Below the pieces are notes generated by a model, which was not told the origin of the DNA, searched no databases, and saw only the letters and a program-made list of their open reading frames with translations. From the sequence record PQ850615.1: DNA of 42,712 nucleotides; one strand, written 5' to 3'. Origin of the DNA: Escherichia phage LotteLoewe_Bas71. Positions 4,418-41,115 of the stretch are shown in pieces; position 1 is the stretch's first letter; each line of letters opens with the position of its first letter. Made by a program: the position numbers and the translations under genes.

Positions 4418-4878
4418 TGATGGGCTTTTTCAAAGTAACTGACGTACCGTCTCGTCGCGTAGTCCAGTACGCCCGCGTGTCTGGCTCTGGCGAGAACGTG
4501 GTATTTATTGAGGACGAAAGTGTACTCGGTACACTGGTAGATGATATGCCGTTTGCAGATAAAACCGGTATTGCGTTGCCCGCCGCCGGTATGCTTTATG
4601 AAATTCCGTATCTGGCGGACGCTGGCGACGTGTATTTCTCTGCGCAACCGCAGGACGCTGAACTGGCGGGCGGCAGCGCAACCATCACTGTCGAGGTTAA
4701 GGCAGGCAAAGCGCCGTATTCTCTGACCTGGTACAAAGACGGTAAGGAAGTGGTGAATGCGCCTGAGGAGGCTCTGTCTCTGACGGTTAATGCGGTCGGC
4801 GAATACTTCGTTAAAGTTACTGATGCCGATGGAGTAGAGGCGGTAAGCAAAGCGGCGAAGGTTACTAAGCCAGAATGA
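4417..4878 (+). CDS. Ig-like domain protein (possible capsid decoration)
   Basis: C-terminal Ig-like signature (ATITVEVKAGKAPYSLTWYKDGKEV...GEYFVKVTDADG); ATGA overlap with upstream gene. Confidence 0.5.
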   Translation: MMGFFKVTDVPSRRVVQYARVSGSGENVVFIEDESVLGTLVDDMPFADKTGIALPAAGMLYEIPYLADAGDVYFSAQPQDAELAGGSATITVEVKAGKAPYSLTWYKDGKEVVNAPEEALSLTVNAVGEYFVKVTDADGVEAVSKAAKVTKPE

Positions 4879-4881
4879 TAA

Positions 4882-4909
4882 AAGGCCCCATTATGGGGCC
4901 TTAGTTTTC
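4882..4909. terminator. bidirectional intrinsic terminator
   Basis: AAGGCCCC-ATTAT-GGGGCCTT hairpin flanked by A-run upstream and T-run downstream; between convergent genes. Confidence 0.6.
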
Positions 4910-5111
4910 AACGGAATCTTGTGTTTAAATCCTGCTCATGGACAACCCTCAGAACAGTGTCATAATCCCCGTATCTTCCAGGTTCAAATATATCTAATGC
5001 CTTGTAAGCAGACATTGCGTCAGGGAAAACCTGCAGAACCTTTTTAACCCGGCACAAGTCACCGTCGAACTCTTCATCGAACTCTTGAACTACTTCGCAA
5101 ATTGCATACAT
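4908..5111 (-). CDS. hypothetical acidic 67-aa protein (opposite-strand accessory gene)
   Basis: Strong SD (AGGAGGTGA), own promoter at 5139..5167 and terminator at 4882..4909; antiparallel to flanking head genes. Confidence 0.55.
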   Translation of the reverse strand: MYAICEVVQEFDEEFDGDLCRVKKVLQVFPDAMSAYKALDIFEPGRYGDYDTVLRVVHEQDLNTRFR

Positions 5112-5138
5112 TTTTCACCTCCTGTTTAAGTTAACTGA

Positions 5139-5167
5139 ATAGTACCCTATTATATTGGGGTGTGCAA
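5139..5167 (-). promoter_or_regulatory. leftward class A promoter for accessory gene 4908..5111
   Basis: On the minus strand TTGCAC (5162..5167) - N17 - TACTAT (5139..5144); same palindromic core. Confidence 0.55.
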
Positions 5168-5208
5168 ACTATTTATTTACGTATTCCAGTTATTCCTCCG
5201 AATTGTAA

Positions 5209-5220
5209 ATGTTGGAATAA
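5209..5220 (+). promoter_or_regulatory. candidate late-promoter motif ATGTTGGAATAA (extended -10-like) upstream of spanins
   Basis: 12-mer identical to 5992..6003; contains TGgAATAA. Confidence 0.3.
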
Positions 5221-5221
5221 A

Positions 5222-5233
5222 CTATTCGAATAG
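5222..5233. repeat. perfect 12-bp palindrome CTATTCGAATAG
   Basis: Everted arrangement of the GAATAG/CTATTC half-sites found in the early promoter cores; adjacent to TTGACT (5234..5239). Confidence 0.5.
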
Positions 5234-5442
5234 TTGACTTTTCACTAAAAATATGATAAGCTCCACCTGAGCTTGTGAAGTATGAACAAGCGACCGCGGC
5301 GCGGGCAGGTAACGGAGCGGGACGTAAGTCCTGAGTGTAGTTACGCTGACGCGTTCGGAAGGGCCATACTCTATTGCTTGTGTAAAAAGTAACAGGTTTA
5401 CTGAGATTACGCCGTTTCTATGTTTAAATGATAAGGACTAGC

Positions 5443-5469
5443 GCCCTGCTTTAAGGCAGGGCTTTACTT
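5443..5469 (+). terminator. terminator/attenuator-like hairpin just upstream of the spanin RBS
   Basis: GCCCTGC-TTTAAG-GCAGGGC followed by TTTACTT; 17 nt before spanin ATG. Confidence 0.4.
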
Positions 5470-5486
5470 ATCGAGAAAGGAGAAAC

Positions 5487-5873
5487 ATGAATCTTAAAGC
5501 AACTGTCGTAGCAGGAGCATGTTTCATCATCCTGGTTTACGCACACGGCATCTACCAGTATCGCAGCGGATGGAACGAAGGCCGGGCTAATCTCGTTTCG
5601 CAGCAACAGCAGAAAGCACAGGCTGAGTTAGCGAAGAAAACACAACGGCAGCAGCAGGATGAATCGAAGGCCGCCGCCGCTGACAACGAAGGCAAGACGA
5701 AATCAGAGGTGATTACCCGTGAAGTCGTTAAGTACATTAAAACGCCTGGTCGCAGCGTGTGCACTTTTGACCCTGAGCGCGTGCAGCTCAAGTCCCGCGC
5801 CGTCGCCAACGCCAATTCCATCCCCGGATACGACGATGATGCAGCCGCCGTGCAAACTGGCGCAGCCAAGTAG
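5487..5873 (+). CDS. i-spanin (Rz-like)
   Basis: N-terminal TM helix (ATVVAGACFIILVYAHGIY), Q/A/K-rich predicted coiled coil; embeds a +1-frame lipoprotein ORF (classic Rz/Rz1 architecture). Confidence 0.65.
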   Translation: MNLKATVVAGACFIILVYAHGIYQYRSGWNEGRANLVSQQQQKAQAELAKKTQRQQQDESKAAAADNEGKTKSEVITREVVKYIKTPGRSVCTFDPERVQLKSRAVANANSIPGYDDDAAAVQTGAAK

Positions 5874-5982
5874 CGACGCTGATGAGGATTTGGCCGTCGA
5901 CGTTCAGAATGCTGAATGCGTACGGCAACTGAGGCTGAAAGTGTTTATGTTGCAGGATTACGTGAGGAATATTCTGGAATAG
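5719..5982 (+). CDS. o-spanin (Rz1-like outer-membrane lipoprotein)
   Basis: +1 frame overlapping the i-spanin; signal peptide with lipobox LTLSAC, proline-rich mature region. Confidence 0.65.
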   Translation: MKSLSTLKRLVAACALLTLSACSSSPAPSPTPIPSPDTTMMQPPCKLAQPSSDADEDLAVDVQNAECVRQLRLKVFMLQDYVRNILE

Positions 5983-5991
5983 TTGCCTTGC

Positions 5992-6003
5992 ATGTTGGAA
6001 TAA
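5992..6003 (+). promoter_or_regulatory. candidate late-promoter motif ATGTTGGAATAA upstream of scaffold/capsid genes
   Basis: Exact repeat of 5209..5220, about 60 nt upstream of scaffold ATG. Confidence 0.3.
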
Positions 6004-6064
6004 TTTATTCTTGACATGTAAATCCGGGTGGCCCGGATTCCAACGTCCAGGGGACATACTGACT

Positions 6065-6766
6065 ATGAATCGTTTTTTACGTTATCCGTTCCAGGAAGAA
6101 GCTGGAGCAGAAGATAAAGCTGGTGGCGGTGACGCTCCTAAAATGTTCACCGCTGAAGAAGTTCAGGCGCTGATTGAGAAAGAAGTTGCCGGGCTTAAGG
6201 CTAATCAGGAAGCATTGTTGGCGGAGAAGAAAGAAGCCGCTCGCAAAGCAAAAGAGGCCGAAGAAGAACGGCAGCGCGCGCACCAGGAGGCGTTAAAAGC
6301 CGCTGGTAAGATGGATGAGTTCGAAAAGACGATTCGTAGCCAGTACGACCCTGTGTTAGCCGAGAAAGACGGTCGCATCTCCAGAATGGCAGAGCGTATC
6401 CTCGGCAGCGAACGTAAAGCGGTGCTAGGCTCTTTCGCGGGTGACTTTATTACCCCAGAAGCAGTGGACATTCTTGCGCCGTTCGTTAAGACTGAGTTCG
6501 AAGGCGATGATGTGGTTACTAAGTTTGTTGGTGCAGACGGTAACGTAATCACGACTGACCCGGAACAGTTCCGCAAATACCTGCGCGAACACAAGGCGTT
6601 TTCGCATTTGATCAAAGCAAATGCAGCTTCCGGCGGCGGGGCTTCCGGTAGCAAAGGCGGCGGGGCCGCACCAGCGTTTAAAGACATGAGTGAAGCAGAG
6701 CGTTTAGCCCTGTATAAATCGAACCCTGCCGAATTTGAACGGCAACTTAAAGCCCTGAGGAAATAA
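6065..6766 (+). CDS. capsid scaffolding protein
   Basis: E/K/A-rich predicted coiled-coil protein immediately upstream of the major capsid gene; start refined to internal ATG 6065 with AGGGGA SD. Confidence 0.55.
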   Translation: MNRFLRYPFQEEAGAEDKAGGGDAPKMFTAEEVQALIEKEVAGLKANQEALLAEKKEAARKAKEAEEERQRAHQEALKAAGKMDEFEKTIRSQYDPVLAEKDGRISRMAERILGSERKAVLGSFAGDFITPEAVDILAPFVKTEFEGDDVVTKFVGADGNVITTDPEQFRKYLREHKAFSHLIKANAASGGGASGSKGGGAAPAFKDMSEAERLALYKSNPAEFERQLKALRK

Positions 6767-7833: not shown

Positions 7834-7862
7834 GAGAGGGACTTCGGTCCCTCTTTTCATTT
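7834..7862 (+). terminator. intrinsic terminator after major capsid gene
   Basis: AGAGGGAC-TTCG-GTCCCTCT stem with UUCG tetraloop followed by TTTCATTT. Confidence 0.6.
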
Positions 7863-11958: not shown

Positions 11959-11984
11959 AAGGCCCCTTTCGGGGCCTTTTTCTC
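11959..11984. terminator. bidirectional intrinsic terminator
   Basis: AAGGCCCC-TTTC-GGGGCCTT hairpin followed by TTTTCT; between major tail gene and leftward cassette. Confidence 0.6.
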
Positions 11985-13749: not shown

Positions 13750-13778
13750 GTTACATGTGAATAGTACCCTATTATATT
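13750..13778 (+). promoter_or_regulatory. candidate rightward promoter overlapping the leftward one (divergent pair)
   Basis: GTTACA (13750..13755) - N17 - TATATT (13773..13778) on the plus strand within the same palindromic element; upstream of tail chaperone operon. Confidence 0.35.
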
Positions 13779-13789
13779 GGGGTGTGCAA
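13761..13789 (-). promoter_or_regulatory. leftward class A promoter for cassette 13732..11983
   Basis: Minus strand TTGCAC (13784..13789) - N17 - TACTAT (13761..13766). Confidence 0.55.
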
Positions 13790-13795
13790 GTAGTG

Positions 13796-13806
13796 TGCTA
13801 GAATAA
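13796..13806 (+). promoter_or_regulatory. candidate late-promoter motif variant TGCTAGAATAA upstream of tail chaperone operon
   Basis: 9/11 match to TGTTGGAATAA; about 90 nt upstream of 13897. Confidence 0.2.
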
Positions 13807-13896
13807 GTTTGCGCCTAGTGTCGCACACGAAAAGCGGGTGGTTCCCGCCTGGCGCATTAACCATAACCAGTAACCTCTTAACCAAAGGACTAAAGA

Positions 13897-23767: not shown

Positions 23768-23792
23768 AAGGCCCCGTTTGGGGCCTTTTCTC
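23768..23792. terminator. bidirectional intrinsic terminator between tail and replication arms
   Basis: AAGGCCCC-GTTT-GGGGCCTT hairpin followed by TTCTC; flanked by convergent operons. Confidence 0.6.
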
Positions 23793-35300: not shown

Positions 35301-35589
35301 ACCGTTTAGCCAACCCTTCCAGCAAATTTTTATACTCTTCAAAATATTCCTCGACCAAATCATCGCCGAAATAGAAGTCGATATACTCGAGATTATCTCT
35401 TACGTTAAGCGATGCCGACATGGTGCTTAGTTGGCGTAAGCTAATTAGCTTCATTTCTGTTTCTACGCAGAAAGGCCGGTAGGTATCAAGATGGCAAGAG
35501 ATATTGAAGCATAAAGCGAACTCTCCGGCCACGGAGTGAACCATATACACTTCGTTTTCTGCTTTATTGTGGAAAATTACGCCTTTCAT
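35299..35589 (-). CDS. hypothetical 96-aa protein
   Basis: ORF ATGA-coupled to the upstream AlpA-like gene. Confidence 0.4.
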   Translation of the reverse strand: MKGVIFHNKAENEVYMVHSVAGEFALCFNISCHLDTYRPFCVETEMKLISLRQLSTMSASLNVRDNLEYIDFYFGDDLVEEYFEEYKNLLEGLAKR

Positions 35590-35768
35590 TTCACGTTCTC
35601 CTTAATCCATGCTTCGACTTTATTACGGTCAAATGTTCCCGGTAAACGGCGGCCCATAACCTTAATACAGCAGTCAGGGAATTTGCCGCTGCGCAACCAG
35701 TTATTAATGGTCTGACGTGTCACCCCGATACGCTCGGCTACCTCATTCTGTGTCATGTAATGTTGCAT
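35586..35768 (-). CDS. AlpA/Xis-like HTH DNA-binding protein
   Basis: Start refined to ATG 35768 (AGGGGA SD); HTH region MTQNEVAERIGVTRQTINNWLRSGKFP typical of the AlpA family; first gene of the leftward arm. Confidence 0.6.
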   Translation of the reverse strand: MQHYMTQNEVAERIGVTRQTINNWLRSGKFPDCCIKVMGRRLPGTFDRNKVEAWIKENVK

Positions 35769-35865: not shown

Positions 35866-35895
35866 TTGAAAGTTCTTGACACATGTTTGTATAAT
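35866..35895 (+). promoter_or_regulatory. rightward promoter in central control region (TTGAAA-N18-TATAAT)
   Basis: -35 TTGAAA 35866..35871, 18-nt spacer, consensus -10 TATAAT 35890..35895; divergent from promoter 35800..35828. Confidence 0.5.
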
Positions 35896-36094
35896 GGTTT
35901 TGGGACTTGTATATATTACGGAGTTGACGAACCCTCCCCGAGGGATTCGTCAACCCCTCCCAGACAGCTGAGATGCTTGCCTTGTGGTTTAAGGATAAGT
36001 GTATCTAAATCTCATTTAAAGAAGTAACCCGCTGAAATATCTACTGTTTCTTAATGTGCCGTAGATTCGCAACCGTAAAAATGTAACGATTATT

Positions 36095-36122
36095 GGGCAG
36101 GCTTAGGGCCTGCCCTTTAGTT
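36095..36122 (+). terminator. terminator-like hairpin ending the control-region transcript
   Basis: GGGCAGGC-TTAGG-GCCTGCCC followed by TTTAGTT. Confidence 0.4.
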
Positions 36123-36187
36123 ACCAAGTAATAAGAATAAAGGCACAACAGTTTCGAAAGAATCACAACGGCAACGTAACTATTCTC

Positions 36188-36216
36188 TTGCACACCCCAA
36201 CATAATAGGATACTAT
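36188..36216 (+). promoter_or_regulatory. early promoter, class A (TTGCAC-N17-TACTAT) with palindromic core
   Basis: -35 TTGCAC 36188..36193, 17-nt spacer, -10 TACTAT 36211..36216; core CATAATAGGATACTATTCA. Confidence 0.55.
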
Positions 36217-36241
36217 TCACTTATCGAAACGAGACAGAGGA

Positions 36242-36442
36242 GTGAGGGTTATGTTTAAGAAGGGTCAGTTGGTTAAAACTAAACGCGGAGGGCAATATGT
36301 ATTAGTGTTGCAGGACGAGAGCGAGTATGACGAGGATAATCTGGTTGACGTATGGGGTCTGGTAAGAAAGAAAACTGGGTTCGCCTCCCGCGATAATTTA
36401 GAACTCATCGGCAACAATTTTAAATTCAAAGGGGCGAAGTGA
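36242..36442 (+). CDS. hypothetical early protein (66 aa)
   Basis: First ORF after promoter 36188..36216 with conserved AACGAGA...GGAG leader. Confidence 0.45.
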   Translation: MRVMFKKGQLVKTKRGGQYVLVLQDESEYDEDNLVDVWGLVRKKTGFASRDNLELIGNNFKFKGAK

Positions 36443-39087: not shown

Positions 39088-39281
39088 TGGTACAGAGATA
39101 TGAGGTAAAAGCGTGGGGCCTGCCAGAGCCTGAGATGGCTGAGTACGCATACGGCGATTATGTAGAGTACGACGCTTATCTGAAACTTGAAGCAAAGTTA
39201 CGTGAATTCGCTAAGCAGGTGCTAGATAGCCCGTGTGACTGGAAGACAAATGAATTAGCGCGCGAGATTCTTGGAATATGA
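39087..39281 (+). CDS. hypothetical protein, paralog B (64 aa)
   Basis: Starts MVQRYEVK; shares N-terminus and YxxLEAxL core with paralog A; TAATG overlap. Confidence 0.45.
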   Translation: MVQRYEVKAWGLPEPEMAEYAYGDYVEYDAYLKLEAKLREFAKQVLDSPCDWKTNELAREILGI

Positions 39282-39571
39282 GCCTTGCAACTGACATCCT
39301 GAAACGAAGCGGCCTTGCGCCGCTGTCACCGAGAGCGAAGACACGAATATACAAGCGCCGCCGTAATGCGCTGTACCCTGAGATTCAGGCCAGACGCAAA
39401 GCAGTCCGCGCCTGCGGATTCCAGAACGGAAAGGCCGTGAATCTAGGAGAGTTTAAAACACAGGAACGCGCGGCAATCGCTAATCGGTTATTTAATTACT
39501 GGAAATCGCTCGGATACGATGATATTCCATCGAAACCGCAGAGACGACAATACATCTGGCGTCATAAATAA
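39278..39571 (+). CDS. hypothetical basic protein (97 aa)
   Basis: ATGA-coupled ORF; arginine/lysine-rich. Confidence 0.4.
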   Translation: MSLATDILKRSGLAPLSPRAKTRIYKRRRNALYPEIQARRKAVRACGFQNGKAVNLGEFKTQERAAIANRLFNYWKSLGYDDIPSKPQRRQYIWRHK

Positions 39572-39646: not shown

Positions 39647-39955
39647 TTGGATAAATTTACTGAAACAGTGACAGGCTGGCTTCTCGCTGCCGCACTAGCC
39701 GGAGGGGTAATCGGACTAAGGCAACATAAGTCCGCTATTTCCGGCCCTATCGACGGCTTCTGCTTTATTGCAACTGGCTTCACTTGCGCCGTATTTGGCG
39801 CACCTCTCGCAGCTCAATGGTTTGGAATCACGGGCGACCGTGAAATCGCAGGCCTGGGCTTCATTATCGCTATTCTCTGGATGCCTATCTATTCCCGTCT
39901 GTCCGGTATCGTCGCCGGAGAATACATCGCACGTCGAGGAGGCCCGGATGAATGA
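39647..39955 (+). CDS. holin
   Basis: 102 aa with predicted TM helices and charged C-terminus; TTG start with GGAGGA SD; adjacent to the endolysin. Confidence 0.55.
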   Translation: MDKFTETVTGWLLAAALAGGVIGLRQHKSAISGPIDGFCFIATGFTCAVFGAPLAAQWFGITGDREIAGLGFIIAILWMPIYSRLSGIVAGEYIARRGGPDE

Positions 39956-40214
39956 GTTATTCTGGTTCTGCGGTATGCTGGCAATCGGAGGCACATCGCT
40001 GTTTAATGTGTATCATCCCAGCGTTGACGACGGGCTATTTGGCCGGGTGCTCTATATCCTGACTGCTATTGTCTGCGCCGCAGGATGTATCCACCTGTTA
40101 CAGGGCAGCATGTCTCCGACGCTGCCTGAGACATTAATCACATTAGTTGCGCTGCGCCAGATTCGTCAGGCGTGGCTGTCATACGGAGGACATAAGCGTG
40201 TCTCGAAACATTAG
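39948..40214 (+). CDS. second small membrane protein of lysis cassette (holin/antiholin candidate)
   Basis: 88 aa with two hydrophobic segments; ATG 39948 with GAGGAGG SD; overlaps holin and endolysin. Confidence 0.45.
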   Translation: MNELFWFCGMLAIGGTSLFNVYHPSVDDGLFGRVLYILTAIVCAAGCIHLLQGSMSPTLPETLITLVALRQIRQAWLSYGGHKRVSKH

Positions 40215-40686
40215 CAACAATGGCATCAAATTCACCGCCGCGTTCGAGGGATTCCGCGGAACTGCGTATCGTGCTACGCCAAATGAGAAGTACCTGACTA
40301 TTGGGTACGGTCATTATGGGCCAGACGTAACGCCAGGCAAGACCATCACCCCGGGACAAGGCCTCCTGTTACTGAATCGTGATATGGCTAAGGCCGTAGC
40401 TGCGGTTGACGCAGCAGCACACCATTCATTGACACAGGCACAGTTCGATGCAGTGTGCGACCTGGTATACAACGCAGGTGCTGGTGTGATTGCAGCTACT
40501 ACCGGCACGGGTAAGGCACTGCGTTCTGGTGATATTGCAACGCTGCGGGCTAAGCTGGCGCTGTTCATCAACCAGAACGGCAAACCGATACTTGGACTGC
40601 GTCGTCGTACCGCCGGACGTCTGGCACTGTTCGACGGTAAACCGTGGCAAGAGGCAGAGGCTATTGGGCGCGCGGTGAAAGGTTGA
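40198..40686 (+). CDS. endolysin, phage lysozyme (GH24-like)
   Basis: Lysozyme-like region (IKFTAAFEGFRGTAYRATPNEKYLTIGYGH); GTG start with GGAGGA SD; followed by a terminator. Confidence 0.7.
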   Translation: MSRNISNNGIKFTAAFEGFRGTAYRATPNEKYLTIGYGHYGPDVTPGKTITPGQGLLLLNRDMAKAVAAVDAAAHHSLTQAQFDAVCDLVYNAGAGVIAATTGTGKALRSGDIATLRAKLALFINQNGKPILGLRRRTAGRLALFDGKPWQEAEAIGRAVKG

Positions 40687-40753
40687 CACCTGAGACTAAT
40701 CCGACGATACTTAAATCACCTCCTGTCCCATACCTCTGCTCTCCAGTTTTATC

Positions 40754-40782
40754 CCGGCCCTGACCCAGCCGGGATTTTTTTT
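40754..40782 (+). terminator. intrinsic terminator after lysis cassette
   Basis: CCCGGC-loop-GCCGGG followed by T8. Confidence 0.65.
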
Positions 40783-40804
40783 ATCTATTTTCTGCAATGA
40801 CTAG

Positions 40805-40833
40805 TTGACTATTACCTACGACCCTATTATATT
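40805..40833 (+). promoter_or_regulatory. rightward promoter (TTGACT-N17-TATATT)
   Basis: Canonical sigma70 spacing; sits right after terminator 40754..40782; spacer carries CCCTATTATAT, related to the shared core. Confidence 0.55.
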
Positions 40834-40866
40834 TACTCCATCGACAACGAGAACGGAGTAGAGAAG

Positions 40867-41115
40867 ATGAGTAACGTACAGACAATCGCAATAACCGAGG
40901 AACTTGAAGCCAAATGTATCGCATGGACTATGGGTAATGACCAGGTTGCTATGCGTAAATTTCCAATGAAAATCACAGACATCGAAGCATTCAAAGATGC
41001 ACAACTGATGGCACGTATTGCCGTTGGCAACCTGAGCAACAATATCCCGGCGGACGCGTTCTGGGCTGCGGCGATGCAGACACTTAAAGCAGCTTATGCA
41101 GGAGAGAAGAAATGA
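40867..41115 (+). CDS. hypothetical protein (82 aa)
   Basis: First ORF after promoter 40805..40833; leader ACGAGAACGGAG. Confidence 0.4.
   Translation: MSNVQTIAITEELEAKCIAWTMGNDQVAMRKFPMKITDIEAFKDAQLMARIAVGNLSNNIPADAFWAAAMQTLKAAYAGEKK

Follow-up and report, generated by a model that had tools for sequence, protein, structure and literature searches.

What is the function of the roughly 250 nucleotides (nt) that lie directly ahead of the spanin genes in Escherichia phage LotteLoewe_Bas71 (sequence record PQ850615.1)? The window, meaning the whole stretch of DNA that was analysed (42,712 nt), is a nearly complete Kagunavirus genome (Guernseyvirinae), and its region 4880-6060 matches 300 phage records, with identity of 99.4% to Escherichia phage vB-Eco-KMB35 and 99.2% to the BASEL phage Bas74. 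According to the annotation of Bas74, the stretch in question (5234-5486) is preceded by a small minus-strand gene (4908-5111) and followed by the i-spanin and o-spanin genes (5487-5982), after which the scaffold and major capsid genes come next. Positions 5234-5486 are non-coding and constitute a promoter-plus-leader cassette heading the spanin/scaffold/capsid transcription unit. The 5' part of the leader is an RNA domain with covarying base pairs, and in many relatives the same domain is met a second time, at the head of the rightward early operon and joined to a different 3' end. Neither Rfam nor the literature searched describes this RNA family, the covarying fold or the presence of the family at two operon heads; the general logic of a promoter-proximal structured leader with a hairpin is already known.

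Leader types and non-coding status

Four types of leader were distinguished upstream of spanin:

Type A: Kagunavirus and some Jerseyvirus phages (the type of the window)
Type B: most Jerseyvirus phages
Type C: phiEap-2 and FSL SP-031-like phages
Type D: Cornellvirus, Pantoea phage AH01 and STP-1-like phages

A preliminary description, made from the letters of the sequence, had proposed a non-coding leader here, with a 36-codon open reading frame (ORF) as the coding alternative. Its non-coding view has stood: between 5112 and 5486 there is no ORF of at least 60 amino acids on either strand, and the one ORF of some size is the following:

5282-5392, plus strand: ORF of 36 codons, rejected as a gene

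This frame is intact in 38 of the 47 type-A copies. In the remaining nine it is broken by 1-nt indels which leave 9 or 17 codons or an unrelated frame, and these indels are paired or located in loops, with the RNA helices kept (contigs L003, L014, L015 and L019); in L015 the translation is wholly different after compensated indels. The frame lacks a Shine-Dalgarno sequence, its ATG is placed within the loop of a hairpin (H1, see below), and in type B this ATG is deleted. In most of the 181 matching GenBank records sampled nothing is annotated at the leader, and a hypothetical protein is annotated there in some. Given the broken copies and the loss of the start codon, the suggestion that a small protein is encoded, for which the intact copies and those annotations might be cited, is scarcely to be credited.

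Promoter and operator-like repeats

5234-5262, plus strand: sigma-70 promoter P_L, with -35 TTGACT (5234-5239), a 17-nt spacer and extended -10 TGaTAAGCT (5254-5262)
5182-5233, plus strand: operator-like repeats as read from the sequence, TATTCCAGTTATTCC (5182-5196), GGAATAAACTATTC (5214-5227) and the palindrome CTATTCGAATAG (5222-5233)
5397-5427, plus strand: conserved middle block UUUACUGAGAUUACGCCGUUUCUAUGUUU, an RNA motif or an internal promoter-like site

Position 5234 is the first base of the -35 hexamer. The extended -10 element, TGnTA(A/C)GCT, is present in 66/66 leader copies, among which the -35 element reads TTGACT in 49 and TAGACT in 14. In the record of phage fBC-Eco01, a predicted host promoter and a predicted terminator are annotated at the equivalent places. 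Transcription presumably proceeds from P_L with a predicted start at about 5269-5270, and the predicted transcript has a length of ~205 nt.

Within the middle block there is an internal promoter-like site (5397-5424) composed of TTTACT (5397-5402), 16 nt and TATGTT (5419-5424), which type A conserves and which the fBC-Eco01 record lists as 'host promoter2'. The middle block is common to type B and to subtype E1 of the second locus described below (GUCACUGAUAAUUAAAAGUUUCUAUAGUU), and the E1 counterpart of the site reads GTCACT, 16 nt, TATAGT. If this site were active, spanin mRNA could start just ahead of the terminal hairpin.

The 12-nt palindrome that had been reported at 5222-5233 is indeed present there, and it belongs to repeats of the form TTATTCC / GGAATAAnnTATTC. 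The motif GGAATAAnnTATTC has 12 matches in the window as compared with 2.9 expected, it is also located before the scaffold gene (5997-6010) and it is missing from the early-locus promoter copies. As a separate observation, a basic protein of 97 amino acids is encoded just before the holin genes (39278-39571, plus strand); it resembles an AP2-type DNA-binding domain by eye only, has no Pfam match, and its PHROGs families are all of unknown function. It is a candidate binder of the GGAATAA repeats.

The 5' RNA domain

5271-5291, plus strand: hairpin H1 at the very 5' end of the RNA, GCUUGU / ACAAGC with a 9-nt loop
5294-5358, plus strand: long irregular hairpin with helices P2a (5294-5296/5356-5358), P2b (5298-5303/5350-5355), P3 (5306-5308/5346-5348) and P4 (5309-5313/5340-5344), then an internal loop GGAG / AGUGUA, helix P5 (5318-5323/5328-5333) and a GUAA tetraloop
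5359-5376, plus strand: unpaired conserved motifs AAGGGCC (5359-5365) and CUAUUG (5371-5376)

Covariation across related phages, which the preliminary description had named as a way of probing its proposal, brought to light a folded 5' domain with pairs changed on both sides. Variants were gathered by a pattern scan of IMG/VR (ACCGCGG, 40-70 nt, TTCGGAAGGG), a covariance model was built from 16 of them and 32 distinct sequences (types A, B and E1-E3) were then aligned. Standard pairs occupy 95.0% of the alignment cells, as compared with 84.5% in column shuffles (0/500 reach the observed value), and pairing falls to 28-42% when partners are slid by 1-3 columns. Both-side changes are seen in 11 of the 28 pairs, with a covariation score of the domain of 0.28 versus 0.11. 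Pair 42-113 of P2b, for example, is CG in 15 sequences, UA in 14 and AU in 3; in helices 3 and 4, six and four pairs respectively are changed on both sides, and the apical helix has an entirely different sequence in every variant. An unfitted MAFFT alignment gives identical pair types. Two G-U pairs are invariant, therefore the fold belongs to the plus strand.

The minimum free energy (MFE) structure of the single sequence 5269-5366, H1 included, is the same fold as the covariation structure and accounts for 41% of the ensemble; its z-score is -2.7 versus -1.6 on the opposite strand. At the position of H1, type B has ACGCU-UUC-AGCGU and type C has UUCGU-UCU-ACGAA, hairpins of different sequences. 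AAGGGCC and CUAUUG vary hardly or not at all among types A and B and the early-locus subtypes E1-E3, and GGAAGGG(C/U)C is present in type C as well.

The terminal hairpin and the spanin ribosome-binding site

5430-5472, plus strand: extended terminal hairpin (terminator scan), with basal stem GAUAAG/CUUAUC (5430-5435/5467-5472) and apical stem 5443-5450/5455-5462, loop UUAA
5477-5489, plus strand: Shine-Dalgarno sequence AAGGAG (5477-5482) and i-spanin start codon (5487-5489), read from the sequence

The GC-rich hairpin noticed earlier, GCCCTGCT-TTAA-GGCAGGGC at 5443-5462, has, as an intrinsic terminator should, a G+C-rich stem (8 bp, six G-C pairs) and a loop of 4 nt, it is directly followed by TTTACTTAT / TTTACTTATC, and 17 nt lie between 5469 and the spanin ATG (5487). 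This hairpin is kept in relatives with compensatory changes, so that its conservation, on which the preliminary description had made its proposal depend, speaks for it; what that description had missed is the promoter, the covarying 5' domain (5271-5365) and the basal extension of the hairpin. The apical stem occurs as GCCCUGC/GCAGGGC, GCCCCGC/GCGGGGC, GCCCGGC/GCCGGGC and GCCCGAC/GUCGGGC, the basal stem as GAUAAG/CUUAUC, UAUACG/CGUAUA, GUAAUG/UGUUAC and GUAU/AUAC, and in contig L079 the whole is a perfect hairpin of 18 bp. Positions 5426-5475 fold at -20.8 kcal/mol versus -9.9 +/- 2.3 for shuffled sequences (z = -4.7; 0/200 shuffles as good). Each of the four leader types closes with an extended hairpin made of a GC-rich apical and an AU-rich basal stem, with differing sequences, and in all of them it ends 5-15 nt ahead of the Shine-Dalgarno sequence.

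The U-run is another matter. At 5463-5471 it is interrupted (6 T in 9) and doubles as part of the 3' arm of the basal stem; it reads UUUACUUAU in type A versus UUAGCGUAU in type B, its counterpart in types C and D is UGUUACG or UUAUACG, and a consensus terminator scan is passed by the window alone. Outside type A the U-run is not conserved, therefore the conserved property is the hairpin and not efficient intrinsic termination. Regarding the earlier proposal of an attenuator or a small RNA of ~200 nt, the anatomy fits an attenuator and a discrete RNA from the promoter at 5234-5262 to ~5470 is plausible. From the hairpin to the spanin start no promoter of consensus grade was detected, the weak site at 5397-5424 being upstream of the hairpin, and spanin expression from this unit therefore probably needs read-through.

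In the MFE structure AGAAAC (5481-5486) pairs with GUUUCU (5414-5419). This outer pairing shows one compensatory change, type A GUUUCU/AGAAAC versus type B GUAU/AUAC, which is weak evidence. RNAalifold proposes that the Shine-Dalgarno region pairs with the 5' end, two columns being compensatory; this pairing was set aside as a weak possibility, as it competes with H1 and stems from a single contrast between types.

A second locus at the rightward early operon

In several IMG/VR Kagunavirus contigs the pattern was matched twice. About 15 copies belong to the early locus as compared with ~31 type-A copies of the late locus, and in one contig which has both copies together (L079) the second is situated 11.6 kb upstream on the same strand. 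The second copy has the same promoter as the leader (TTGACTTTTAC...TGCTAAGCT), the same H1 and the same long hairpin with many compensatory changes (subtypes E1-E3), and it keeps UUCGGAAGGGCC, CUAUUG and the shared middle block ACUGAnAUU...GUUUCUAU. Its 3' part differs, being a large hairpin with a U-run and with no adjacent gene or start codon, behind which stands the promoter of the rightward early operon (TTGCAC, 17 nt, TACTAT). Thus a single 5' domain is combined with either of two 3' ends, and each combination heads an operon and points in the direction of that operon. The same promoter and 5' domain occurring without an adjacent start codon make control specific to spanin, as first suggested, unlikely.

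The genome of LotteLoewe_Bas71 itself carries one copy of the 5' domain (146 bits at 5263-5385; the next best match has 14 bits). Its early locus is occupied by an unrelated unit of the same design (35866-36125, plus strand), also without an ORF:

35866-35871 and 35890-35895, plus strand: promoter of the unit, -35 TTGAAA and -10 TATAAT
within ~35920-35957, plus strand: 14-bp hairpin, z = -5.9
~36095-36121, plus strand: terminator-like hairpin GGGCAGGCUUAGGGCCUGCCC plus UUUAGUU, z = -4.1
within 36189-36222: promoter-like TTGCAC, 17 nt, TACTAT, after the unit; the first rightward gene begins at 36251

Conservation of this unit extends to 334 phage records for its 3' 100 nt and to only 20 for its 5' part, and its promoter resembles that of type D spanin leaders. 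In FSL SP-101 yet another 5' module is found at the early locus. These are interchangeable promoter-plus-RNA modules at two positions, each heading a co-oriented operon and each followed by a hairpin.

Exchange of the leader between genomes is seen at the spanin locus as well. The type A leader is 96-99% identical where the flanking genes are 81-97% identical, and in Jerseyviruses it is 96% identical with flanks of 81-86%, including spanin and scaffold genes at 81-82%; between types A and B, on the other hand, the leader is ~69% identical and the flanks ~80%. Being conserved within a type and divergent between types, the leader evolves as a swappable cassette exchanged between genomes. In FSL SP-101 the leader is 96% identical and the genome ~80%, the sole other outlier being the region of the single-stranded DNA-binding gene (92.7%), and no candidate cognate protein travelling with the leader emerged from this comparison.

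In two contigs of more distant relatives an unrelated leader of ~300 nt precedes spanin (L033, 1620-1950; L039, 1075-1350), with scaffold proteins 70-72% identical; it is full of CTCGCAA/TTGCGAG repeats where GGAATAA motifs stand elsewhere, which suggests a different regulator with the same layout.

Searches for relatives, partners and targets

Rfam 15 (4227 families) gave no match at the gathering score over the whole window, and up to E = 10 (4850-6100) nothing relevant was noticed on the plus strand of 5240-5470, the sole overlap being a partial match to a plant microRNA precursor (5240-5282, E = 6.6). A tRNA/tmRNA scan of the window detected none. Host origin or mimicry was rejected after blastn of 5230-5490 against 5,426 complete E. 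coli genomes returned no match. A pattern scan of 185,579 bacterial and archaeal genomes gave chance matches only among the 120 matches listed, one of which had an extra motif and was unrelated. Elsewhere in the phage genome, complementarity to the RNA did not exceed chance; the host was searched for similarity. The published Kagunavirus transcriptome reports gene-level classes only, with nothing on the leader region (PMC12645636).

Comparison with known systems

The putL and putR sites of phage HK022 are cis-acting RNA antiterminators of ~70 nt with two stems, V-shaped with a triplex, which allow factor-independent read-through of downstream terminators and need the zinc-binding domain of the beta' subunit of RNA polymerase (PMC9378689). 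Similarly, the Guernseyvirinae leader has a folded RNA just 3' of a sigma-70 promoter, the fold starting within a few nt of the start, with two stem-loops and no dedicated protein factor recognisable; in many relatives there are two paralogous copies per genome, each heading a long operon. In contrast to put, the domain is ~95 nt long and combines a short with a long hairpin, its carriers are virulent siphoviruses and not lambdoid phages, and the present genome has one domain copy only, with an unrelated unit at the other locus. Antitermination by the Guernseyvirinae domain is a prediction. The covariance model (R1) did not match HK022 at the put sites, its best match being elsewhere with E = 0.94; Rfam does not contain a put model, thus its silence is uninformative in this respect.

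The late leader of phage lambda comprises the promoter PR', the 194-nt 6S RNA and the terminator tR', and is released by Q. Its layout of a host-type promoter, a ~200-nt non-coding leader and a hairpin directly upstream of lysis and structural genes is repeated here as far as anatomy goes (promoter 5234-5262, hairpin 5430-5472, spanin ATG 5487), and the short RNA predicted here is about as long as 6S. Nevertheless, no homologue of Q, which is discussed in PMC7171158, was recognised among the proteins scanned or in the annotation of Bas74. The leader body is itself a conserved structure with covarying pairs, whereas lambda is not known to require such a structure. In addition, the U-run is weak and varies between types, and holin and endolysin are encoded elsewhere (39.7-40.9 kb). 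With riboswitch and attenuator leaders the cassette shares a conserved 5' domain with differing 3' hairpin modules, co-oriented at two operon heads; it differs from them in that there is no Rfam match, no mutually exclusive pairing was found and no ligand is suggested by gene context. Lambda oop and 6S are phage small RNAs derived from promoter-proximal terminated transcripts, and the promoter, the short structured RNA, the hairpin and the second-locus copies without a coding sequence recall them. Unlike in these RNAs, no antisense target was found and the copy of the window is fused to a ribosome-binding site.

Possible mode of action and alternatives

A host-type promoter, a fold at the 5' end, a hairpin and two operon heads give together the anatomy of a cis-acting leader, with the logic of an attenuator or of antitermination as in lambda PR'-6S RNA-tR' or HK022 put. 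That the leader is a cis-acting cassette governing read-through at its hairpin is accordingly the explanation favoured here, with a probability that we place somewhat below even. Host RNA polymerase would start at the extended -10 promoter (5234-5262) and would first transcribe a stably folded 5' domain of ~95 nt, composed of H1, a four-tier hairpin and single-stranded AAGGGCC. The extended hairpin would be transcribed ~70 nt later, ending 5-15 nt before the spanin ribosome-binding site, and would stop or pause a fraction of polymerases with the release of a ~200-nt leader RNA. The folded 5' domain would set how many polymerases read into spanin and the genes beyond, either by a direct effect on the polymerase or through a bound ligand or a bound factor from phage or host. 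We infer both the polymerase stop at the hairpin and the control of read-through by the 5' domain. Strong internal terminators within the late unit (7834-7855, plus strand, after the capsid gene, and 11959-11978) count in favour of such control. More specifically, the 5' domain may be a put-like processive antiterminator with several interchangeable classes at the heads of early and late operons, that is a self-sufficient or factor-recruiting RNA which may make the RNA polymerase of E. coli or Salmonella terminator-resistant, or else a new ligand- or protein-sensing leader timing late and lysis expression; this narrower proposal is unlikely as matters stand.

Several points weigh against read-through control. 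The transcript start, the 3' end and the read-through are all predicted from the sequence, the alignment was fitted to the model (A4), and the variants fall into a few discrete types, hence few independent covariation events are available. Since the U-run is weak in the window and is not kept by types B, C and D, the conserved hairpin may have a function other than termination. Promoter-like sites exist before the tail genes (13775-13808) and before the scaffold gene (with a poor -10), therefore long-range antitermination may be unneeded. No antitermination protein family was found among ten proteins scanned per library (PHROGs and Pfam), namely those of the rightward early genes and one neighbour (for PHROGs the regulator at 35586-35765, for Pfam the product of 4908-5108), nor in Bas74, a 99%-identical genome with 81 annotated genes; one of the many small proteins of unknown function may still be a novel factor. 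No convincing covarying antiterminator pairing was found either, and a classical terminator/antiterminator switch was rejected, the only alternatives being of 4-5 bp (AGGGC/GCCCU; GCAGG/CCUGC) and not covarying with stem variants. Finally, the copies at the second locus have the look of independent small-RNA genes, for which a trans-acting RNA is just as good an explanation.

According to this last idea, the main rival, the RNA would itself be the product, a stable trans-acting small RNA of ~200 nt; a strong host-type promoter would drive its early synthesis and the hairpin would terminate it. It could serve as a decoy or sponge for a host protein or defence system, or as a regulator of host or phage mRNAs, and its position before spanin would be incidental, with spanin expressed from leaky read-through. 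The fold is stable and well defined, and the second-locus copies are complete promoter-RNA-terminator units followed by an operon with its own promoter. At the early locus, 5' modules are swapped between unrelated types and the 3' module is kept in 334 records, a turnover typical of accessory or counter-defence loci. This is nonetheless rather unlikely, considering that no complementarity above chance elsewhere in the phage genome and no similarity to any E. coli sequence were detected, that the U-tails are short and interrupted, unlike those of typical Hfq-dependent small RNAs, and that all four types are fused to the spanin ribosome-binding site with no consensus-grade promoter in between. 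From this direct fusion it follows that the RNA is at least partly a 5' untranslated region. A post-transcriptional role could coexist with either read-through control or a trans-acting RNA: the hairpin together with GUUUCU/AGAAAC would tune spanin translation, or would be an RNase III-type processing site or an mRNA stabiliser. Phage RNase III sites resemble a 17-18 bp stem with an internal loop, which counts for this role, as do the constant distance class of 5-15 nt between hairpin and Shine-Dalgarno sequence in every type, the MFE pairing of 5414-5419 with 5481-5486 adjoining the start codon, and the RNAalifold pairing of the 5' end with the Shine-Dalgarno region with its two compensatory columns. 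It is decidedly unlikely all the same, as the 5' domain is also present at a locus without an adjacent start codon and is therefore not specific to spanin, and the compensatory changes of the outer and long-range pairings come down to one contrast, type A versus type B, and H1 and the basal stem, with which these pairings compete, are better supported.

A further explanation would be a plain promoter, a spacer and a leaky intrinsic terminator, in which conservation is due to recent recombination and not to an RNA fold. Layouts of a promoter followed by a terminator are common in phages, and the 96% leader identity in Jerseyviruses with flanks of 81-86% could mean recent horizontal transfer. 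Yet helices survive changes on both sides across types A, B and E1-E3, indels are compensated with the hairpins kept (L003, L014, L015) and the 5' domain occurs at two loci with different 3' parts, all of which makes a mere spacer very improbable. An element acting as DNA (an origin of replication, a signal for packaging or a series of sites bound by a regulator) could be thought of because operator-like repeats adjoin (5182-5233) and because the divergent early control region, into which the second locus falls, is a common place for origins in phages. The two invariant G-U pairs and many variable ones, however, would be A-C mismatches on the other strand, the minus-strand fold is weaker and a promoter stands directly ahead of the leader in every copy, and such an element deserves hardly any credence.

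Significance

Phages of the Guernseyvirinae (Jersey-like and K1G-like) belong to those most often isolated for therapy against Salmonella and E. coli, and near-identical ones are available in the public BASEL collection (Bas70-76), Bas74 and Bas75 being 98-99% identical in this region. A covarying RNA domain which travels with its own promoter to operon heads gives a handle on how these phages control transcription. Should the domain modify RNA polymerase, it would be only the second kind of RNA-only phage antiterminator known; should it act in trans or as a decoy, the short list of functional RNAs known from virulent phages would grow by one. For annotation, the 36-codon 'hypothetical protein' placed in many of these genomes ought to be dropped, and the spanin genes should be given a long structured 5' leader.

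Other features of the surroundings

The minus-strand region 4908-5111 adjoining the leader is an accessory-gene slot whose content varies among relatives (a sliding-clamp-like gene, a RusA-like gene or other small genes); its 67-amino-acid ORF in the window has no Pfam match. Similarity to relatives picks up again at 5117, 5136 or 5182, depending on the phage. The spanin genes (5487-5982) are located in the head-gene block, ~8.5 kb on the circular map from holin and endolysin (39700-40900); in distant relatives (L034-L036) spanin comes directly after endolysin and there is no leader.

Positions 5136-5167 and 13758-13789 are an exact 32-nt repeat, TGAATAGTACCCTATTATATTGGGGTGTGCAA, which on the minus strand reads as a promoter (TTGCAC, 17 nt, TACTAT) ahead of both minus-strand accessory-gene cassettes. 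Kin of this promoter (TTGACA...TATAGT) precede leftward replication genes at ~26544, 30255, 32555, 32604 and 36198. Near-identical hairpins, AAGGCCCC...GGGGCCTT, are present at 4882-4902, 11959-11978 and 23768-23787, at the ends of rightward units, and mark the junctions with minus-strand cassettes. All three are terminator-like on the minus strand according to the scan, and those at 4882-4902 and 11959-11978 have a T-rich tail on the plus strand too.

Ahead of the tail assembly chaperone gene there is an extended -10 promoter-like site (13775-13808; TTGGGG, 16 nt, TGCTAGAAT) and a short hairpin leader, GCGGGUGGUUCCCGC, and the tail operon may have its own start. The stretch ahead of the scaffold gene (5983-6064) contains TGTTGGAATAATTTATTCTTGACA, a poor -10 and the hairpin AUCCGGGUGGCCCGGAU. 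Its identity is 83-100% across all leader types and 88-93% in the most distant phages, whose flanking genes are 72-76% identical; since its identity exceeds that of the flanking genes, this stretch is more constrained than the coding sequence around it.

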